Below, piece by piece: positions 1 through 5,657 of a stretch of DNA of 5,657 bases. The position numbers were made by a program, and so were the translations under genes. A model generated the notes under the pieces. It did no database searches and was not told the DNA's origin. It saw nothing but the letters and a program-made list of their open reading frames with translations. Source of the stretch: a virus (lineage: Duplodnaviria; Heunggongvirae; Uroviricota; Caudoviricetes); the IMG/VR virus record IMGVR_UViG_2609460218_000011, one strand, 5' to 3'. Position 1 is the stretch's first letter; each line of letters opens with the position of its first letter.

Positions 1-131
1 ATGAACTGCAGTTGCCATGTTTTACGGCAGTGAGAGCAGAGATAGCGCTGATGTCCGGCGGTGCTTTTGCCGTTACGCACCACCCCGTCAGTAGCTGAAC
101 AGGAGGGACAGCTGATAGAAACAGAAGCCAC
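1..131 (-). CDS. insA: IS1 InsA, N-terminal 43 codons; 3' part lies outside the window
   Basis: The minus-strand frame starting at GTG (complement of 129-131) translates to [43 protein letters not shown], which matches the InsA N-terminus from memory. The start lies ~55 nt inside the IRL, as expected for IS1. Confidence 0.85.
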
Positions 132-186
132 TGGAGCACCTCAAAAACACCATCATACACTAAATCAGTAAGTTGGCAGCATCACC
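1..186 (-). mobile_element. IS1-family insertion sequence, partial copy cut by the window edge; left inverted repeat (IRL) terminus at position 186
   Basis: Read on the minus strand from 186 down to 1, the sequence is the IS1 left end GGTGATGCTGCCAACTTACTGATTTAGTGTATGATGGTG... as I recall it. The same ~170 nt recur in forward orientation at 5487-5657. The element continues beyond the window start. Confidence 0.9.
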
Positions 187-254
187 ATTTCACGATTATA
201 TACAGCGGCATTGCTCAGTCTGCACAAGTCACGGCCCCTCCGCAGAGCTGGCAG

Positions 255-1406
255 GTGGATATCACTCCGGAACTGAAAACAGCACTGAAAGCACCTAATC
301 GCCTGTCAGAAATTGCTGATGAAGGCAAAGAGGCACAACAGGAATCACGCGATAATCTCGGGCTAAAAAAAGCGGCCACAATGGAACCTCAGAATGGTAT
401 CCGTGACCGTTCTGAAGGTCGTCTGGCGACACCTGGTGCATTTGGTTTTAGTCACAGGTTTATTCCGGGGGAGGCCGTCAGGTTTAAATCTGAGGCTGAT
501 TTTCTGGCATGGGCAAGATATGTGGAGCCAGGAGAATATTATGTGGATGGGGCAAACGGTGTACTTCCCGGCATTGTTTTTCAGGGGGTGATAAGTATCC
601 GCTGGCTGGAAGCAAACCATAACCCACCACTTCCGTTACATACAGCAAAGGCCATTATTTTCTACGGCATTAATGGCAATATTTATTACAACCGTTACTG
701 GTCCACTGGTAATGGCTGGCTGACTGGCTGGGAAAACCTGAAAGTAAACGAGGTTGCACTCAGGGAACTTATTGAAACAAGGGCTCCTCTGGAAAGCCCG
801 GAATTCACAGGAAAGCCGACTACACCAACACCGCCGGATGATGCAGCAGGTAATGAAATTGCCAGTGTGGCCTTTGTTCGCAAACAGATGGAATCTCTTG
901 ACACCACTTCACCAGAGGGTCCCGAAATTTCTTCTGCGCCGACCAATTTACTGTCCAGACAACAATCCGGAGACTTATTTGTTGATGGCGCTCATCCGGT
1001 CATTCCAAAGGTGGCTGTAAGTACCCTGAACAGCAACCTGGATTCATTTAAAAGTCTGCCGGATGGTTCACGTATTTATGCTATGGAACTGGATGTATCT
1101 AATCCTGTCAGGAAATCCTCTGTTGGAGGAGTGGGTATCGCTGTTTCTGCTCTGCTCGAACCACGTTATCTCTACATGAATCAGAACCGACAATACATTC
1201 CTGCTCAGTATTTTGTCGGTTCTGTCTCGGCTACCGCGAGCACAATAACAGTAAGAATACGGGTGGTGATGCCAGACACACCTTACTATGCACTGGATAC
1301 ATCGACACTGGAGGAGACAGCCAGCGCAAAAAATGGACCTCTTCCCTGTATTGTGGTGGCAAAAATATTTGCGGGAACAACATTACGCCAGAACGGAATG
1401 GGGTAA
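255..1406 (+). CDS. Phage side tail fibre protein, C-terminal fragment; 5' end apparently replaced by the IS1 insertion
   Basis: Long ORF ending TAA 1404-1406. The frame has no stop between 99 and 255, so it stays open upstream through the IS1 junction at 186/187; GTG 255 is only the first possible start in the track. The segment FTGKPTTPTPPDDAAGNEIASVAFV (about nt 803-889) resembles the conserved phage tail-fibre repeat (F-T-G-x-P-T-x-P-T ... I-A-x-x-A-F-V). Composition is rich in G/S/T/N, typical of fibre distal domains. Confidence 0.6.
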   Translation: MDITPELKTALKAPNRLSEIADEGKEAQQESRDNLGLKKAATMEPQNGIRDRSEGRLATPGAFGFSHRFIPGEAVRFKSEADFLAWARYVEPGEYYVDGANGVLPGIVFQGVISIRWLEANHNPPLPLHTAKAIIFYGINGNIYYNRYWSTGNGWLTGWENLKVNEVALRELIETRAPLESPEFTGKPTTPTPPDDAAGNEIASVAFVRKQMESLDTTSPEGPEISSAPTNLLSRQQSGDLFVDGAHPVIPKVAVSTLNSNLDSFKSLPDGSRIYAMELDVSNPVRKSSVGGVGIAVSALLEPRYLYMNQNRQYIPAQYFVGSVSATASTITVRIRVVMPDTPYYALDTSTLEETASAKNGPLPCIVVAKIFAGTTLRQNGMG

Positions 1407-1430
1407 TATCCGGACACACAGGAAGAACAA

Positions 1431-1931
1431 ATGAACAATTCAACATGGATACGCTCTGTTTTGCGACCAGCCCCCATAGCTATTACCTGTTCAATGGTTT
1501 GCCTCCACCCATGGTCAGAAAATACGGGAAACATTACACCATCAGGGCATTACCTCAGCCCGGATAATGCTGTATCCGCGCTTTTACCTTATCTGACAGA
1601 AAACACAGAAAAAAGACGTTGTGGCGCTGTTATTTTGCGCCCCGTCTGCTGGCGAGTTTTTATCACTCGCCAGGCAATTTTCAGGCGCATTTCCGTTACC
1701 AGAGGTGGGACGAATGTCCCGCATGATCTCCAGCCAGTTTTCACTGGCCATCAGCAGAATGCAAATCCCCGCCAGACCGGTAACATCACTTCCGGAACCG
1801 ATAATGCTATCGACACAGACCACTCGCAGCATGTCGCTGGCGGCAACCATTGCACAGGCAGCCACTCCTGCCGTCACATCACCGGAAACATTGTCATCAT
1901 CACTGCGTCAGTTCATGAATGCGAGAGATAA
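1431..1931 (+). CDS. Hypothetical protein in the position expected for a tail-fibre assembly/chaperone gene; frame assignment ambiguous
   Basis: ATG 1431 lies 25 nt after the fibre stop and is preceded by the SD-like AGGAAG (1420-1425, 5-nt spacer). The downstream half of the translation is rich in Cys/His/Arg and looks like an out-of-frame read. It overlaps the frame-1 ORF 1621-2154 and the antisense ORF 1584-1877, which shares the same codon register. Confidence 0.3.
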   Translation: MNNSTWIRSVLRPAPIAITCSMVCLHPWSENTGNITPSGHYLSPDNAVSALLPYLTENTEKRRCGAVILRPVCWRVFITRQAIFRRISVTRGGTNVPHDLQPVFTGHQQNANPRQTGNITSGTDNAIDTDHSQHVAGGNHCTGSHSCRHITGNIVIITASVHECER

Positions 1932-2154
1932 AGCCTTACAGGAAATCGCTGATCAGCAGGCCGCACTCCGGCAAAAATTTTGCCCGGTGTGGCGCTTTTG
2001 CCACAAGGGAGCCCTTAGCCAGGCCGCAGTGCTGATACAAAAAAACATCCCACACCCCGAGTGGGTTTTTACAGCTGTGATGCTGTTCGTCGGCGATAAT
2101 CTCTCATCACTAAGGGAAACACTACATGACCCAGATGATTGTCCTTGCGCTTGA
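1621..2154 (+). CDS. Hypothetical protein, alternative frame; may be the continuation of the 1431 ORF after a frameshift
   Basis: This frame opens at 1597 (after TGA 1594-1596), 12 nt upstream of an A6 run (1609-1614). Internal ATG 1712 is preceded by GAGGTGGGA. The translation contains plausible helical stretches such as DKALQEIADQQAALRQK. Its end overlaps the 2126 start by 29 nt. Confidence 0.25.
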   Translation: MALLFCAPSAGEFLSLARQFSGAFPLPEVGRMSRMISSQFSLAISRMQIPARPVTSLPEPIMLSTQTTRSMSLAATIAQAATPAVTSPETLSSSLRQFMNARDKALQEIADQQAALRQKFCPVWRFCHKGALSQAAVLIQKNIPHPEWVFTAVMLFVGDNLSSLRETLHDPDDCPCA

Positions 2155-2701
2155 CGGGGAAGCCATTCTGCTGCGCAACATCACCGTCAGCGCCACCATG
2201 CAACTACCGGACAAAGATATGTCCGGACAATCAACCAGCACCACGAGCGCCCAGCAGGGAAACAAGGCCAAAGAGCTGCGCGTATCGGGGATTATTGATT
2301 TTAACGATGAAGCTATTTTGACCCGTATTTTTCAGCTTGCGGAGGCAACAGAAAGCAACGGAGCCAAAAAAACATACCGCATCGCCAACGCTACTGCTAA
2401 GGCGATTAATATGCGACAGGGTGTTTTTTCGGGCAGCATCGATGCCACGGAACAACAGGGCAAGATGCACTGGCAGGTCACCTTTACCCTCAGGGAAAAA
2501 TTAAGCGTGCCGGAAAAAGCATCGGCACGCAGTGGCTCACAGAAAACAATCGCAAAGCAGCAGACACAGAACGGCAGTGAGCAGGTACCGGATAAAGGAA
2601 TGAATACCCAGGAGACTTTCTGGAAAAATATCAATGATGGTATTGGCTCCGGTCTGGACTGGATTGGCATCGGGAGCGTGAAGGAGGAAGGGAAAACATG
2701 A
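2126..2701 (+). CDS. Hypothetical protein (191 aa), first gene of a coupled pair; probably phage-associated
   Basis: SD-like AAGGGA (2112-2117) lies 8 nt upstream of ATG 2126. Its stop TGA 2699-2701 overlaps the next start ATG 2698-2700 (ATGA), indicating translational coupling. No catalytic motif recognised by eye. Confidence 0.6.
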   Translation: MTQMIVLALDGEAILLRNITVSATMQLPDKDMSGQSTSTTSAQQGNKAKELRVSGIIDFNDEAILTRIFQLAEATESNGAKKTYRIANATAKAINMRQGVFSGSIDATEQQGKMHWQVTFTLREKLSVPEKASARSGSQKTIAKQQTQNGSEQVPDKGMNTQETFWKNINDGIGSGLDWIGIGSVKEEGKT

Positions 2702-4395
2702 AATTAATCCAACGCTGTATGATTAATGGCGAGCTGGCGGAAATTGCCGATATCAGCCTTGTTCTTACCCTGAATGCTGCCGGTCGTGGTTTCATTTCTG
2801 TTAATAATCTGCCACCCAAAAAAAGTCTTGCCGGCGCAATGATACAAATTGATCTCGGCCGTAATGGTGAGGCATGGCGCTATTTCTCCGGCTACATTGA
2901 ACGCGATCAACCCGCCGAAAATGGCTCACGCCGCCTTTTTATCCGTGAAGCAGCTGCCGTGCTGGATTTTGATTTCCCCTGCTCCATGCAACATCCAACG
3001 TTACGGGATGTACTCGATAATCTGGGTAAACAAAGCGGCATCGTTTTCATCACGCCAGACGCGGATTACGTCGGTACTCCGACACCTTACATCACCCACA
3101 GCGGCAGCGGAACACAACTGCTTAGCCAGCTGGGGCGAGCATTCAGTATCAGCGATTACGTCTGGCATCCAATGCCGGACGGTTCCGTATTTGTGGGAAG
3201 CGCATCGGATTCACGGTTTGCCAGTATTACCATGCCGGATATTCCGCAACAGTACACACTCGGGCAAAGCGGCGGAAACAGCATCGACATCATGTTTATG
3301 GAAACTGTGCGACCGGGCGTGAACCTTCCAGCCGGGCGCATTACCCGTGTAGCCCTCAACAACGAGAAAATGACCCTGACATGGGAACGCCTTACCACCA
3401 CGGGTAGCCCTGTTTCCAAATCACCATTACGCAGACAGATGGAAACACAGTTCCCGGAACTGGCCAGCGGTACTCTACATACCAGGCTGGCGCGCGTCAT
3501 TGCCCCAACGGAATCCGTCACCCTGGGCGATGTTGCCGACAGTTTCCGCCCACGCTACGCCGTCGATGTGCAACTGCTTGATGAGAACGGCAACGATAAA
3601 AGCGATACGCCTGTTTATCCGGCAGTACCACTCCCCGTCCCGATGGCTGGTAGCGAGGCGGGATGTTTTGCCTACCCGCCGGCTGGCACCATCGTGGAAA
3701 TATCCAACATTGAAGGACGACCGGATAAACCTGTCATCAGGCAAATCTTACCCGCAGGCCATAACCTGCCTGATGTAAAGCCCGGCGAACAGCTGCAGCA
3801 ACAGCGCGCAGAAGTGTTTCAGCGCGTCACAACTGACGGAAGCTGGCACAGAGAAACCGACCAGCAAATCAGGGAGCATTCAGCCAGGCGAACCATTAAC
3901 AGCGATCAGGAAGAACGCACAACAACAACCAGAACAACAACAGTCCAGGCAAACGACATAACCAGTGTTCTTGGTACCAGCAAACTGATGACAGGCCAGA
4001 CAGAACACCTTACTACCGGCAATTATGCGATCGCAGCCGGTGAGCATATCCAGATGGTAGCGCAGGATTTGCTGACTCAACTCAAAGGGGCGATATCCAC
4101 CATTGAGCATGACCTCACCGAAAACGTGGGAGGCCGCAGAACATGCAGAGCGGACGGCGGTCTGGAGTTTACCGCTCCGACAGTATTTATTGGTCGCGGC
4201 GGCTCGCGGGAAAAGTCAGGGCTTAACCTGCTGACGTTGCTGATCGATATTCTGGATCTGATTCAATTACTGGCCACACATACAGCAAACCACACCCATA
4301 GCAACACTGACGCACCAATGAACAGCAGCGAACTTGCCGCAGATGCCCTGCAGGCGACGAGCCTGCGCGAAAAATACGGCGACATTATCGCCTGA
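2698..4395 (+). CDS. Hypothetical protein (565 aa), possibly a phage tail/fibre-associated structural protein
   Basis: Longest ORF in the window. AGGAGG (2682-2687) and GGGAA lie upstream of ATG 2698, which is coupled to the upstream gene. It contains a Thr-rich low-complexity tract (ERTTTTRTTTVQ, about nt 3910-3947) and a C-terminal His-rich motif ATHTANHTHSNTD (about nt 4273-4311). It is followed by a hairpin terminator. No NTPase or nuclease motif recognised. Confidence 0.7.
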   Translation: MKLIQRCMINGELAEIADISLVLTLNAAGRGFISVNNLPPKKSLAGAMIQIDLGRNGEAWRYFSGYIERDQPAENGSRRLFIREAAAVLDFDFPCSMQHPTLRDVLDNLGKQSGIVFITPDADYVGTPTPYITHSGSGTQLLSQLGRAFSISDYVWHPMPDGSVFVGSASDSRFASITMPDIPQQYTLGQSGGNSIDIMFMETVRPGVNLPAGRITRVALNNEKMTLTWERLTTTGSPVSKSPLRRQMETQFPELASGTLHTRLARVIAPTESVTLGDVADSFRPRYAVDVQLLDENGNDKSDTPVYPAVPLPVPMAGSEAGCFAYPPAGTIVEISNIEGRPDKPVIRQILPAGHNLPDVKPGEQLQQQRAEVFQRVTTDGSWHRETDQQIREHSARRTINSDQEERTTTTRTTTVQANDITSVLGTSKLMTGQTEHLTTGNYAIAAGEHIQMVAQDLLTQLKGAISTIEHDLTENVGGRRTCRADGGLEFTAPTVFIGRGGSREKSGLNLLTLLIDILDLIQLLATHTANHTHSNTDAPMNSSELAADALQATSLREKYGDIIA

Positions 4396-4435
4396 ACACC
4401 AGACATAAAAGCCACATAAACGCCCCATCACGCAA

Positions 4436-4459
4436 CGCACGGTCCCGGCCGTGCGTTTT
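4436..4459 (+). terminator. Putative Rho-independent terminator of the 191/565-aa operon
   Basis: Stem CGCACGG (4436-4442), loop TCCCGG, stem CCGTGCG (4449-4455), then TTTT (4456-4459); 41 nt downstream of the stop at 4395. The T-tract is short. Confidence 0.5.
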
Positions 4460-4935
4460 CATATCTGCCACCTGATTAATCGTTCTGCGTGCCATTCTGG
4501 CGCTGTATGCGCACACCGCGCAAACGGCGTGACGTAAAGCGTGAGGTGACGTAAACCGCGCTACCCCCTCCAACCCGCGGGTTTTGTGTCGAAACACTTT
4601 TTCAGTTTTCTGCCGTGCAAAAATGACCGCCAGCCCGCGCAGCGACTGAGGGAAAAGCGAAGATCTGAAATTTCACGCTTTGAAATTTTTTGCAGTTTTC
4701 AGCGAGTTTTTTACGATCTCATAAATGGCAGGAGCAATGAAACTGCATGATATTAAAAGAGTTTTCATGCTTTGCGCGAGACGAAAAACGATCAAAAAGG
4801 ATCGCGACAAAAAATCGTCAAACAACGAAGCCAGACGCGGCGCGGCCTGCGTAAAATTGAGAGTCAAAATTAAACTGAAAAAAGGATCAATAACGCGCCT
4901 CGATCGCACATGACGATCTACGCAGCAACAGAGCG

Positions 4936-4958
4936 AAAAAAACCGGCGCGAACGCCGG
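4936..4958 (-). terminator. Strong Rho-independent terminator acting on the minus strand
   Basis: On the minus strand: CCGGCG (comp. 4953-4958), UUCG tetraloop, CGCCGG (comp. 4943-4948), then seven U (comp. 4936-4942). The plus strand has no T-tract after the hairpin, so it is directional. Confidence 0.55.
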
Positions 4959-5000
4959 CGGAAGCATGTATCAAATGCGTGACTGAATAATGTATAAGGT
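4936..5000 (-). ncRNA. Candidate small RNA of about 60 nt, transcribed divergently from the hok-type promoter
   Basis: Minus-strand sigma70-like promoter: -35 TTGAGG (complement of 5030-5035), 18-bp spacer, -10 TAAAAT (complement of 5006-5011). This predicts a start near 4998-5000 and termination at the 4936-4958 terminator. No ORF of note lies inside. Confidence 0.25.
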
Positions 5001-5039
5001 CGGGAATTTTACATCAGAAGACCGACAAACCTCAACGGA

Positions 5040-5069
5040 TTGAAACAAGGGAAAAAACCAGGCTAGAAT
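5040..5069 (+). promoter_or_regulatory. Sigma70-like promoter of the hok-type toxin transcript
   Basis: -35 TTGAAA (5040-5045), 18-bp spacer, -10 TAGAAT (5064-5069). The predicted start near 5076 coincides with the first base of the 5' fold-back element. Confidence 0.45.
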
Positions 5070-5075
5070 TCGCGC

Positions 5076-5427
5076 GGGTGCCTTTCGGCTGATGGCTGGA
5101 GGGAATACCTGAAGGCCGGATGTGGAAAGGCCCCGGAAAACATTTTTGTTTAACCGAGGCCCTAACCATCTACCCTAGACAAGTGATAGGTTAGCGCCTC
5201 CCCGAAAAAGGAGCAAGCGCTATGTCGCAAAAATCGCTTACAGCCATCACGTTCTGCGTGACGGCAATCCTCATCATCTGGATGTTGCACGGTTCACTGT
5301 GTGAGATACGGATGAGTTTTTGGGGAGCGGAGTTTGCGGCGTTCTTACAGTGTAAACAGTAAGGAAACCGCGGCGGGGGAGCAATCCCCCGTCAATCGGT
5401 TGCTAAGGTAAGGTCGTAAAGGCACCC
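5076..5427 (+). other. hok/gef-type toxin mRNA unit with 5' (tac-like) and 3' (fbi-like) complementary elements
   Basis: GGGTGCCTTT at 5076-5085 is the exact reverse complement of AAAGGCACCC at 5418-5427 (10/10). A GC-rich hairpin (GGGGGA-GCAA-TCCCCC, 5375-5390) sits in the 3' UTR. This matches the long-range 5'/3' pairing known for hok mRNAs. Confidence 0.55.
5222..5362 (+). CDS. Hok/Gef-family type I toxin (46 aa), small membrane peptide
   Basis: Translation: MSQKSLTAITFCVTAILIIWMLHGSLCEIRMSFWGAEFAAFLQCKQ. It has an N-terminal hydrophobic helix, the conserved SLCEIR motif and a C-terminal Cys, as in Hok-family peptides. SD AAGGAG (5208-5213) lies 8 nt upstream of ATG 5222; stop TAA 5360-5362. 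Not in the ORF track because it is under 60 codons. The specific paralogue is not recognised, so no symbol is given. Confidence 0.75.
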   Translation: MSQKSLTAITFCVTAILIIWMLHGSLCEIRMSFWGAEFAAFLQCKQ

Positions 5428-5486
5428 TATCTTCTAACATATGAGTGGAAAATCCTACGGGGAAAAATGTAAACCTCGTCCTTGCC

Positions 5487-5657
5487 GGTGATGCTGCCAA
5501 CTTACTGATTTAGTGTATGATGGTGTTTTTGAGGTGCTCCAGTGGCTTCTGTTTCTATCAGCTGTCCCTCCTGTTCAGCTACTGACGGGGTGGTGCGTAA
5601 CGGCAAAAGCACCGCCGGACATCAGCGCTATCTCTGCTCTCACTGCCGTAAAACACT
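5487..5657 (+). mobile_element. IS1-family insertion sequence, partial copy cut by the window edge; IRL terminus at 5487
   Basis: GGTGATGCTGCCAACTTACTGATTTAGTG... in forward orientation, the reverse complement of positions 16-186. The last two bases (5656-5657, CT) differ from the left copy (TG). Confidence 0.9.
5542..5657 (+). CDS. insA: IS1 InsA, N-terminal portion; continues past the window end
   Basis: GTG 5542 opens a frame translating [38 protein letters not shown]..., matching the InsA N-terminus. Confidence 0.85.

Follow-up and report, generated by a model that had tools for sequence, protein, structure and literature searches.

The stretch of DNA analysed here, referred to as the window, comprises 5,657 nucleotides of a tailed virus (Caudoviricetes; IMG/VR record IMGVR_UViG_2609460218_000011), and this report deals with two adjacent genes in it, encoding proteins of 191 and 565 amino acids, which an earlier note made from the letters alone had described as a translationally coupled pair of unknown function (Table 1). 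The two open reading frames (ORFs), their overlap and their good ribosome-binding sites are present as described there: the ATG of the 565-aa gene (2698-2700) and the TGA of the 191-aa gene (2699-2701) share the tetranucleotide ATGA, a Shine-Dalgarno sequence AAGGAGG (2681-2687) lies 10 nt ahead of the ATG of the 565-aa gene, and another, AAGGGA (2112-2117), lies 8 nt ahead of that of the 191-aa gene. The threonine-rich tract (RTTTTRTTTV, residues ~408-417) and the histidine-rich motif (HTANHTHSNTD, ~527-537) which it had pointed out were both found in the 565-aa protein. The pair had further been regarded as a unit ending at a terminator, and this view stood only in part. As a terminator the hairpin behind the pair is plausible but weak, as it is trailed by merely TT-C-ATAT, an 80-nt RNA fold of 4396-4475 gave -17.4 kcal/mol (z -1.8), and a consensus terminator scan of the window did not include the hairpin in its output; phage K139 carries an annotated terminator at the matching position. 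The 191-aa gene shares 29 nt with the end of the preceding gene, here called orf33-type (stop codon 2152-2154), which argues that the pair is the end of a longer operon and not a self-contained unit; in intact relatives the orf33-, orf34- and orf35-type genes likewise form the distal end of a long tail operon. A promoter scan noticed no sigma-70-like site upstream of the gene pair, a result which is uninformative because the late promoters of the P2 family are activator-dependent.

Table 1. Features of the window (positions count from its first letter)
Feature	Position	Strand	Remarks
169-nt repeat, left copy	18-186		perfect inverted copy of the right repeat
Tail-fibre gene	255-1406		5' end truncated by left IS1 copy
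HP1 orf33-type gene	1431..2154	+	third member of conserved distal trio; phrog_31292, phrog_1677; synteny
HP1 orf34-type gene, 191 aa	2126..2701	+	tail-tube fold; putative tube initiator, in function an analogue of P2 gpU
HP1 orf35-type gene, 565 aa	2698..4395	+	hub ~1-250, OB ~260-350, beta-helix ~390-500, helix-HxH-helix apex ~510-565
Codons for H532-T533-H534	4291..4299	+	invariant HxH, candidate metal cage of spike apex
Candidate intrinsic terminator of tail operon	4434..4457	+	hairpin, 10-bp stem and 4-nt loop, then short U tract
Spacer of ~800 nt			between the gene pair and the Hok/Gef toxin gene
Hok/Gef toxin gene	5222-5362		PF01848, E 4e-7
169-nt repeat, right copy	5487-5655		perfect inverted copy of the left repeat

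Neither product had matched a family that the earlier note could name, and here the profile searches gave a different answer. The 191-aa protein belongs to Pfam family PF25759, 'Bacteriophage HP1 ORF34 baseplate complex protein', with 180.6 bits against a cut-off of 27 (E 3e-53) and residues 2-174 aligned to positions 2-176 of the 180 in the model; it also matches phrog_1398 and no Pfam family besides PF25759, which is carried by all 77 of its 77 homologues. For the 565-aa protein the match is to phrog_2258, 'baseplate protein', over the full length of both (residues 1-565 on model 1-544 of 544; 773 bits, E 2.9e-232). In tblastn it found orf35 of HP1 and HP2, K139 orf39, Kappa kp45, phiO18P and ESSI-2 among ~75 phage records altogether, and all phages that were checked among those matches (HP1, K139 and ACA1) belong to the Peduoviridae. 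With the low-complexity filter off, HP1 orf34 is 46% identical to the 191-aa protein (E 2.6e-33) and HP1 orf35 is 38% identical to the 565-aa protein over residues 1-564 (E 2.7e-119); the default search stops at residue 452 because the C-terminal ~110 residues diverge between lineages. The HP1 genome ends in the identical orf33-orf34-orf35 order with a 4-nt overlap of orf34 and orf35, and the pair is kept in this order in every HP1-like phage examined, from Haemophilus, Vibrio, Pseudoalteromonas, Aeromonas and Enterobacteriaceae. This confident homology assigns the pair a routine role and, by the criterion which the earlier note had set itself, refutes the reading of unknown function; the nature of the pair is already known and catalogued.

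We examined the setting of the pair in an intact relative, the prophage of E. coli AJ1, where the two genes end a complete P2/HP1-type late region. This region holds the portal, terminase, scaffold and capsid genes, gpR and gpS, the genes for sheath (DUF2586) and tube (HP1_Orf24), lysis genes, those for the chaperone and the tape measure, then DUF2590, baseplate J, tail protein I, fibres, DUF4376 and finally orf33-34-35. A hub, a spike and a tube initiator are required by every contractile tail. No other hub, spike or tube initiator gene was found in the AJ1 late region, and since all its other tail ORFs have different roles, hub, spike and initiator fall to the last three genes. In P2 these parts are made of three copies of gpD (hub), a gpV trimer with an iron site (spike) and six copies of gpU (initiator), as reported in a 2026 electron cryo-microscopy preprint. 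Compared with the AJ1 copy, with which the pair shares 91% nucleotide identity, the ratio of non-synonymous to synonymous substitution rates (dN/dS) was 0.086 for the 191-aa gene and 0.091 for the 565-aa gene, and ranged from 0.03 to 0.14 over four segments of the 565-aa protein. These ratios and the family matches show both ORFs to be real genes. The low ratios reflect selection on functional phages and need not apply to the remnant which the window contains.

The predicted structures pointed to the same parts of the tail. In the AlphaFold2 monomer model of the 565-aa protein the predicted local distance difference test score (pLDDT) is mostly 80-93 over residues 1-250 and moderate at ~260-350 and 510-560, and the model shows the gp27-like hub fold of tandem tube-like domains known from T4 gp27, Mu gp44 and P2 gpD. 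Its list of fold matches is headed by the MuSo2 43-kDa tail protein (score 20.1), the A-1(L) hub (19.2) and Mu gp44 (18.8), followed by the fused hub-spikes of extracellular contractile injection systems (eCIS; Streptomyces CIS, AlgoCIS, PVC and Afp8, 14.5-18.2), E. coli c3393, a type VI secretion system (T6SS) component (17.6), the pyocin R2 hub (15.6) and VgrG1 (12.8); the spikes Mu gp45, A-1(L) spike and P1 gp5 scored 7.7, 7.0 and 6.9. At the sequence level, residues 310-347 resemble the OB domain of gpV and VgrG and residues 393-500 the T4 gp5 beta-helix, both below threshold but mutually consistent. The model of the 191-aa protein has pLDDT of ~90 for most of residues 5-126, with a long low-confidence loop at 36-44 and a disordered tail containing one helix. 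It shows a tail-tube (Hcp-like) beta-sandwich with a flanking helix and a long hairpin loop, which is the fold of the tube initiator class (P2 gpU, pyocin PA0626, Mu gp43, Pam3 gp17 and XM1 gp11), and its matches in BFVD are Dit-like, DNA-circularisation and LysM-initiator proteins. One of the options named in the earlier note, that of a baseplate component, is thus supported for the 565-aa protein as a hub-spike of the baseplate, and the profile and structure-prediction searches and neighbourhood comparison proposed there yielded the hub and initiator folds and the synteny with HP1.

The likeness of the histidine-rich motif to the HxH motifs of phage spike tips, which had been called loose, was borne out as well. 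H532 and H534 are invariant among the 38 homologues aligned, and an HxH, either HTH or HGH, stands ~34 residues from the C-terminus in 116 of the 116 full-length homologues retrieved. It is found at residue 500 of HP1 orf35 (HTH), 502 of K139 orf39 (HTH), 282 of ACA1 gp49 (HGH) and 195 of P2 gpV (HTH). In the literature, spike Apex domains are recognised by an HxH close to the C-terminus, and the P2 Apex-domain study describes an Fe ion caged by three such motifs (10.1101/2023.02.25.529910). Binding of a metal by the 565-aa protein would be expected by analogy.

Thus, combined together, family membership, the hub and initiator folds, synteny, the lack of alternative genes in the intact relative, the invariance of the HxH and purifying selection make us highly confident that the two genes are orthologues of HP1 orf34 and orf35, the last tail-operon genes of an HP1-type P2-family (Peduoviridae) phage, and that they encode a tube initiator and a fused hub-spike. 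The 565-aa protein would be a VgrG-like fusion of a hub of the Mu gp44, P2 gpD and T4 gp27 fold with a central spike in which an OB domain is followed by a triple beta-helix and a C-terminal HxH apex. We infer from the solved baseplates of P2, Mu, pyocin and eCIS that three copies of it would form the central hub-spike, and that the 191-aa protein would be present in six copies, placed on the hub as an initiator ring from which the tube polymerises. Contraction of the sheath would then drive the HxH-tipped spike across the host outer membrane, the tip presumably gaining rigidity from a metal ion, which is probably iron and held by the six histidines of three HxH motifs.

Several observations weigh against this assignment. 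Residues 353-451 of the 565-aa monomer model have pLDDT below 50, which is expected because an intertwined trimer was modelled as a monomer, and the sequence matches to spike domains all stayed under their cut-offs (OB domain PF04717, 15.7-17.8 bits vs 23.8; beta-helix PF22178, 14-16 vs 30.9; TIGR01646, 19.7 vs 121.8). No Pfam hub family was matched by the 565-aa protein, so that membership of the gpD family is not supported by sequence. Alignment of the family alignments with hhalign gave no significant similarity to P2 gpD (probability 0.2), gpU (0.1) or gpV, and the 191-aa protein is better termed an analogue or a very remote homologue of P2 gpU than a member of the gpU family. Searched singly against the PDB by sequence, the 191-aa protein had no match and the 565-aa protein had only sub-threshold matches to the OB domain of VgrG. 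When P2 tail proteins were searched with tblastn against the intact relative and HP1 there were no matches, a result which says little since even P2 J and FI fail. Furthermore, the C-terminal 136 residues taken alone had no PDB or Pfam match. The apex of the 565-aa protein is modelled as helix-HxH-helix, the HxH lying between helices 511-530 and 543-559; ~30 residues follow the motif, as against 17 after the HTH of P2 gpV. The apexes of P2 gpV and of the phi92 spike are beta-structured cones, and the model does not show the HP1-type and P2 spike tips to be equivalent. We put forward tentatively, as an idea more likely wrong than right, that the HP1-type spike tip has an architecture unseen in solved structures, in which, as modelled, a hydrophobic helix runs up to the HxH and is followed beyond the motif by a second helix that turns back, so that the trimer would be a six-helix bundle with a histidine cage at its distal turn. 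If this is true, HP1-like phages, many enterobacterial prophages included, would breach the membrane with a metal-loaded tip that is distinct in structure and joined to the hub in a single chain.

The orf33-type gene, third of the trio, is syntenic with HP1 orf33, K139 orf37 and ACA1 gp46. Its protein had no Pfam, PDB or PADLOC match and did not resemble the orf34 profile; no role is assigned to it, and the way in which the trio shares out its roles is to that extent provisional. As seen by alignment, the gene is frameshifted in the window, where A5 has become A6 at 1609-1614 and has split it into two overlapping ORFs. In the CP131_Sichuan locus (L001) and in loci L005-L010, which include contigs with the identical 565-aa protein, the ORF is undamaged and codes for 240 aa.

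The window holds a decayed HP1-type prophage stub lying between two inverted copies of IS1, and the gene pair cannot build a tail alone. The 169-nt repeats at the two ends of the window are perfect inverted copies, each of which we take to be an IS1 end, facing outward; this brackets the stub as a segment of the composite-transposon type. The nearest E. coli relatives carry an IS1A-family transposase gene upstream of the same stub, and the contig ends of loci L006 and L007 carry fragments of IS1 InsA and DDE_Tnp_IS1. None of the complete E. coli genomes in the collection contains both IS1 junctions together, the best matches covering only 187-5486. In CP131_Sichuan, the NCBI pipeline PGAP labels part of the stretch equivalent to the tail-fibre gene (locus L001, 8177-8698) a 'shikimate transporter' pseudogene, apparently a mis-annotation that has been propagated. 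On the other side, the Hok/Gef gene lies ~830 nt downstream of the hub-spike gene and has a promoter-like site at 5040-5069. It is found with the prophage end at each of two chromosomal sites, one near copA and one near flk, and so belongs to the phage. In an Rfam scan of the window no family reached its gathering score, and accordingly no Sok-type RNA was recognised beside hok.

Many E. coli assemblies encode a protein identical to the 565-aa one (341 index blocks, 165 contigs). In the six places listed, this stub stands upstream of copA and, where the contig extends far enough, has glsA on its opposite side, and at the level of megablast the gene pair is present in 64 of 5426 complete E. coli genomes. 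This wide distribution at one site and the intactness of both ORFs beside damaged neighbours would be understandable if the stub genes were kept by the host for a use of its own, for example a tailocin-like or membrane-active function. We consider such co-option highly unlikely. No head, sheath, tube, wedge or tape-measure genes were found at the stub locus in the loci examined, the upstream operon partner of the pair is already frameshifted in the window, and the differences between remnant copies are few and mostly non-synonymous (two of three). Being ~99.9% identical, the remnant copies have had little time for decay. As the tail machinery in the window is incomplete, the stranded gene pair is most likely recent debris. 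The window therefore offers a snapshot of prophage decay under way, with truncation by IS1 and a poly-A frameshift standing beside intact distal tail genes.

The earlier note had also considered that the pair might be accessory to the prophage, as an alternative receptor-binding or adhesin module, as a moron or as defence cargo. Morons are common at prophage ends after the fibre genes, and the pair lies at just such an extreme end, behind the fibre genes and beside a hok toxin gene; moreover, most database entries for both proteins read 'hypothetical'. Yet the order of the genes is conserved in every HP1-like phage examined, where they are core tail genes, their folds are those of a hub and a tube initiator, the intact relative has no other hub or spike gene, and the match of orf33 in phage ACA1, gp46, was detected by mass spectrometry. 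Neither the pair nor orf33 had a match in PADLOC-DB at E <= 0.01, and nothing resembling a receptor-binding domain was noticed. We therefore rejected the adhesin, moron and defence readings, and hold an accessory module to be extremely improbable.

A reading of the 565-aa protein as an orphan VgrG spike that serves a bacterial T6SS and not a phage, after the name which PGAP gives to one orthologue, is hardly credible at all and was rejected, since the NCBIfam scores of the protein are far under the cut-offs (TIGR03361, 15.9 vs 186.35 bits, besides the score for TIGR01646 given above), its top fold matches are phage Mu-type hubs, and in the loci examined the gene always lies within a P2/HP1-type tail operon or a remnant of one, its neighbours being phage tail genes or chromosomal genes and never T6SS genes. 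The orthologue in question is that of AJ1 (WP_191632069.1; positions 22782-24479 of locus L002), which is entered as 'type VI secretion system Vgr family protein'; most other copies are entered as 'hypothetical protein'. Identification of the pair as tube initiator and fused hub-spike is of value mainly for annotation, as hundreds of E. coli entries are mostly 'hypothetical' and one orthologue is mislabelled as T6SS VgrG. The 191-aa protein can be named a tube initiator of the HP1 orf34 family, and the 565-aa protein a fused baseplate hub-spike of the HP1 orf35 family.

Among known systems, the closest likeness is to HP1 orf34 and orf35 themselves, which share with the pair the position at the end of the tail operon, the 4-nt overlap and the HxH ~34 residues from the C-terminus; HP1 differs in being a complete phage, whereas the window holds a truncated prophage remnant. 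Named counterparts are HP2 orf35, K139 orf38 and orf39, Kappa kp44 and kp45, and the 'baseplate protein' of ESSI-2 and of phiO18P. The proteins gp47, gp48 and gp49 of Pseudoalteromonas phage ACA1 are of the same family, but hub (gp48) and spike (gp49) are split there into two genes (locus L012, 2818-4448), whereas they are fused in HP1 and in E. coli. According to the HHpred results of the depositors in its GenBank record, gp47 corresponds to HP1 orf34 and holds the position of P2 gpU, gp48 corresponds to the N-terminal domain of orf35, and gp49, a 'cell puncturing device', corresponds to the C-terminal domain of orf35 and to P2 gpV (3QR8). The same record gives gp46 as HP1 orf33, detected by mass spectrometry, which we read as virion proteomics. 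In the ACA1 paper (PMC10612066), the gpU-like baseplate protein and the cell-puncturing device are listed with those P2 proteins that HHpred alone detected. Directly upstream of the orf33-35 module, ACA1 carries a diversity-generating retroelement with a reverse transcriptase and an accessory variability determinant.

More distant systems have the same parts in other arrangements. In P2 (gpU, gpD and gpV), as in the R2 pyocin (PA0626, PA0628 and PA0616), the three parts are present, but hub and spike are encoded by two genes in P2 and by one polypeptide in the window. Hub and spike are also separate in Mu (gp43, gp44 and gp45), with which the MuSo2 43-kDa protein is to be grouped, and the Mu initiator gp43 far exceeds the 191-aa protein in length, its solved chain having 446 residues. 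The fused hub-spikes of T6SS and eCIS (VgrG, Afp8 and Pvc8) use a separate PAAR protein. The 565-aa protein differs from them in having an HxH tip of its own and in being encoded in a phage tail operon.

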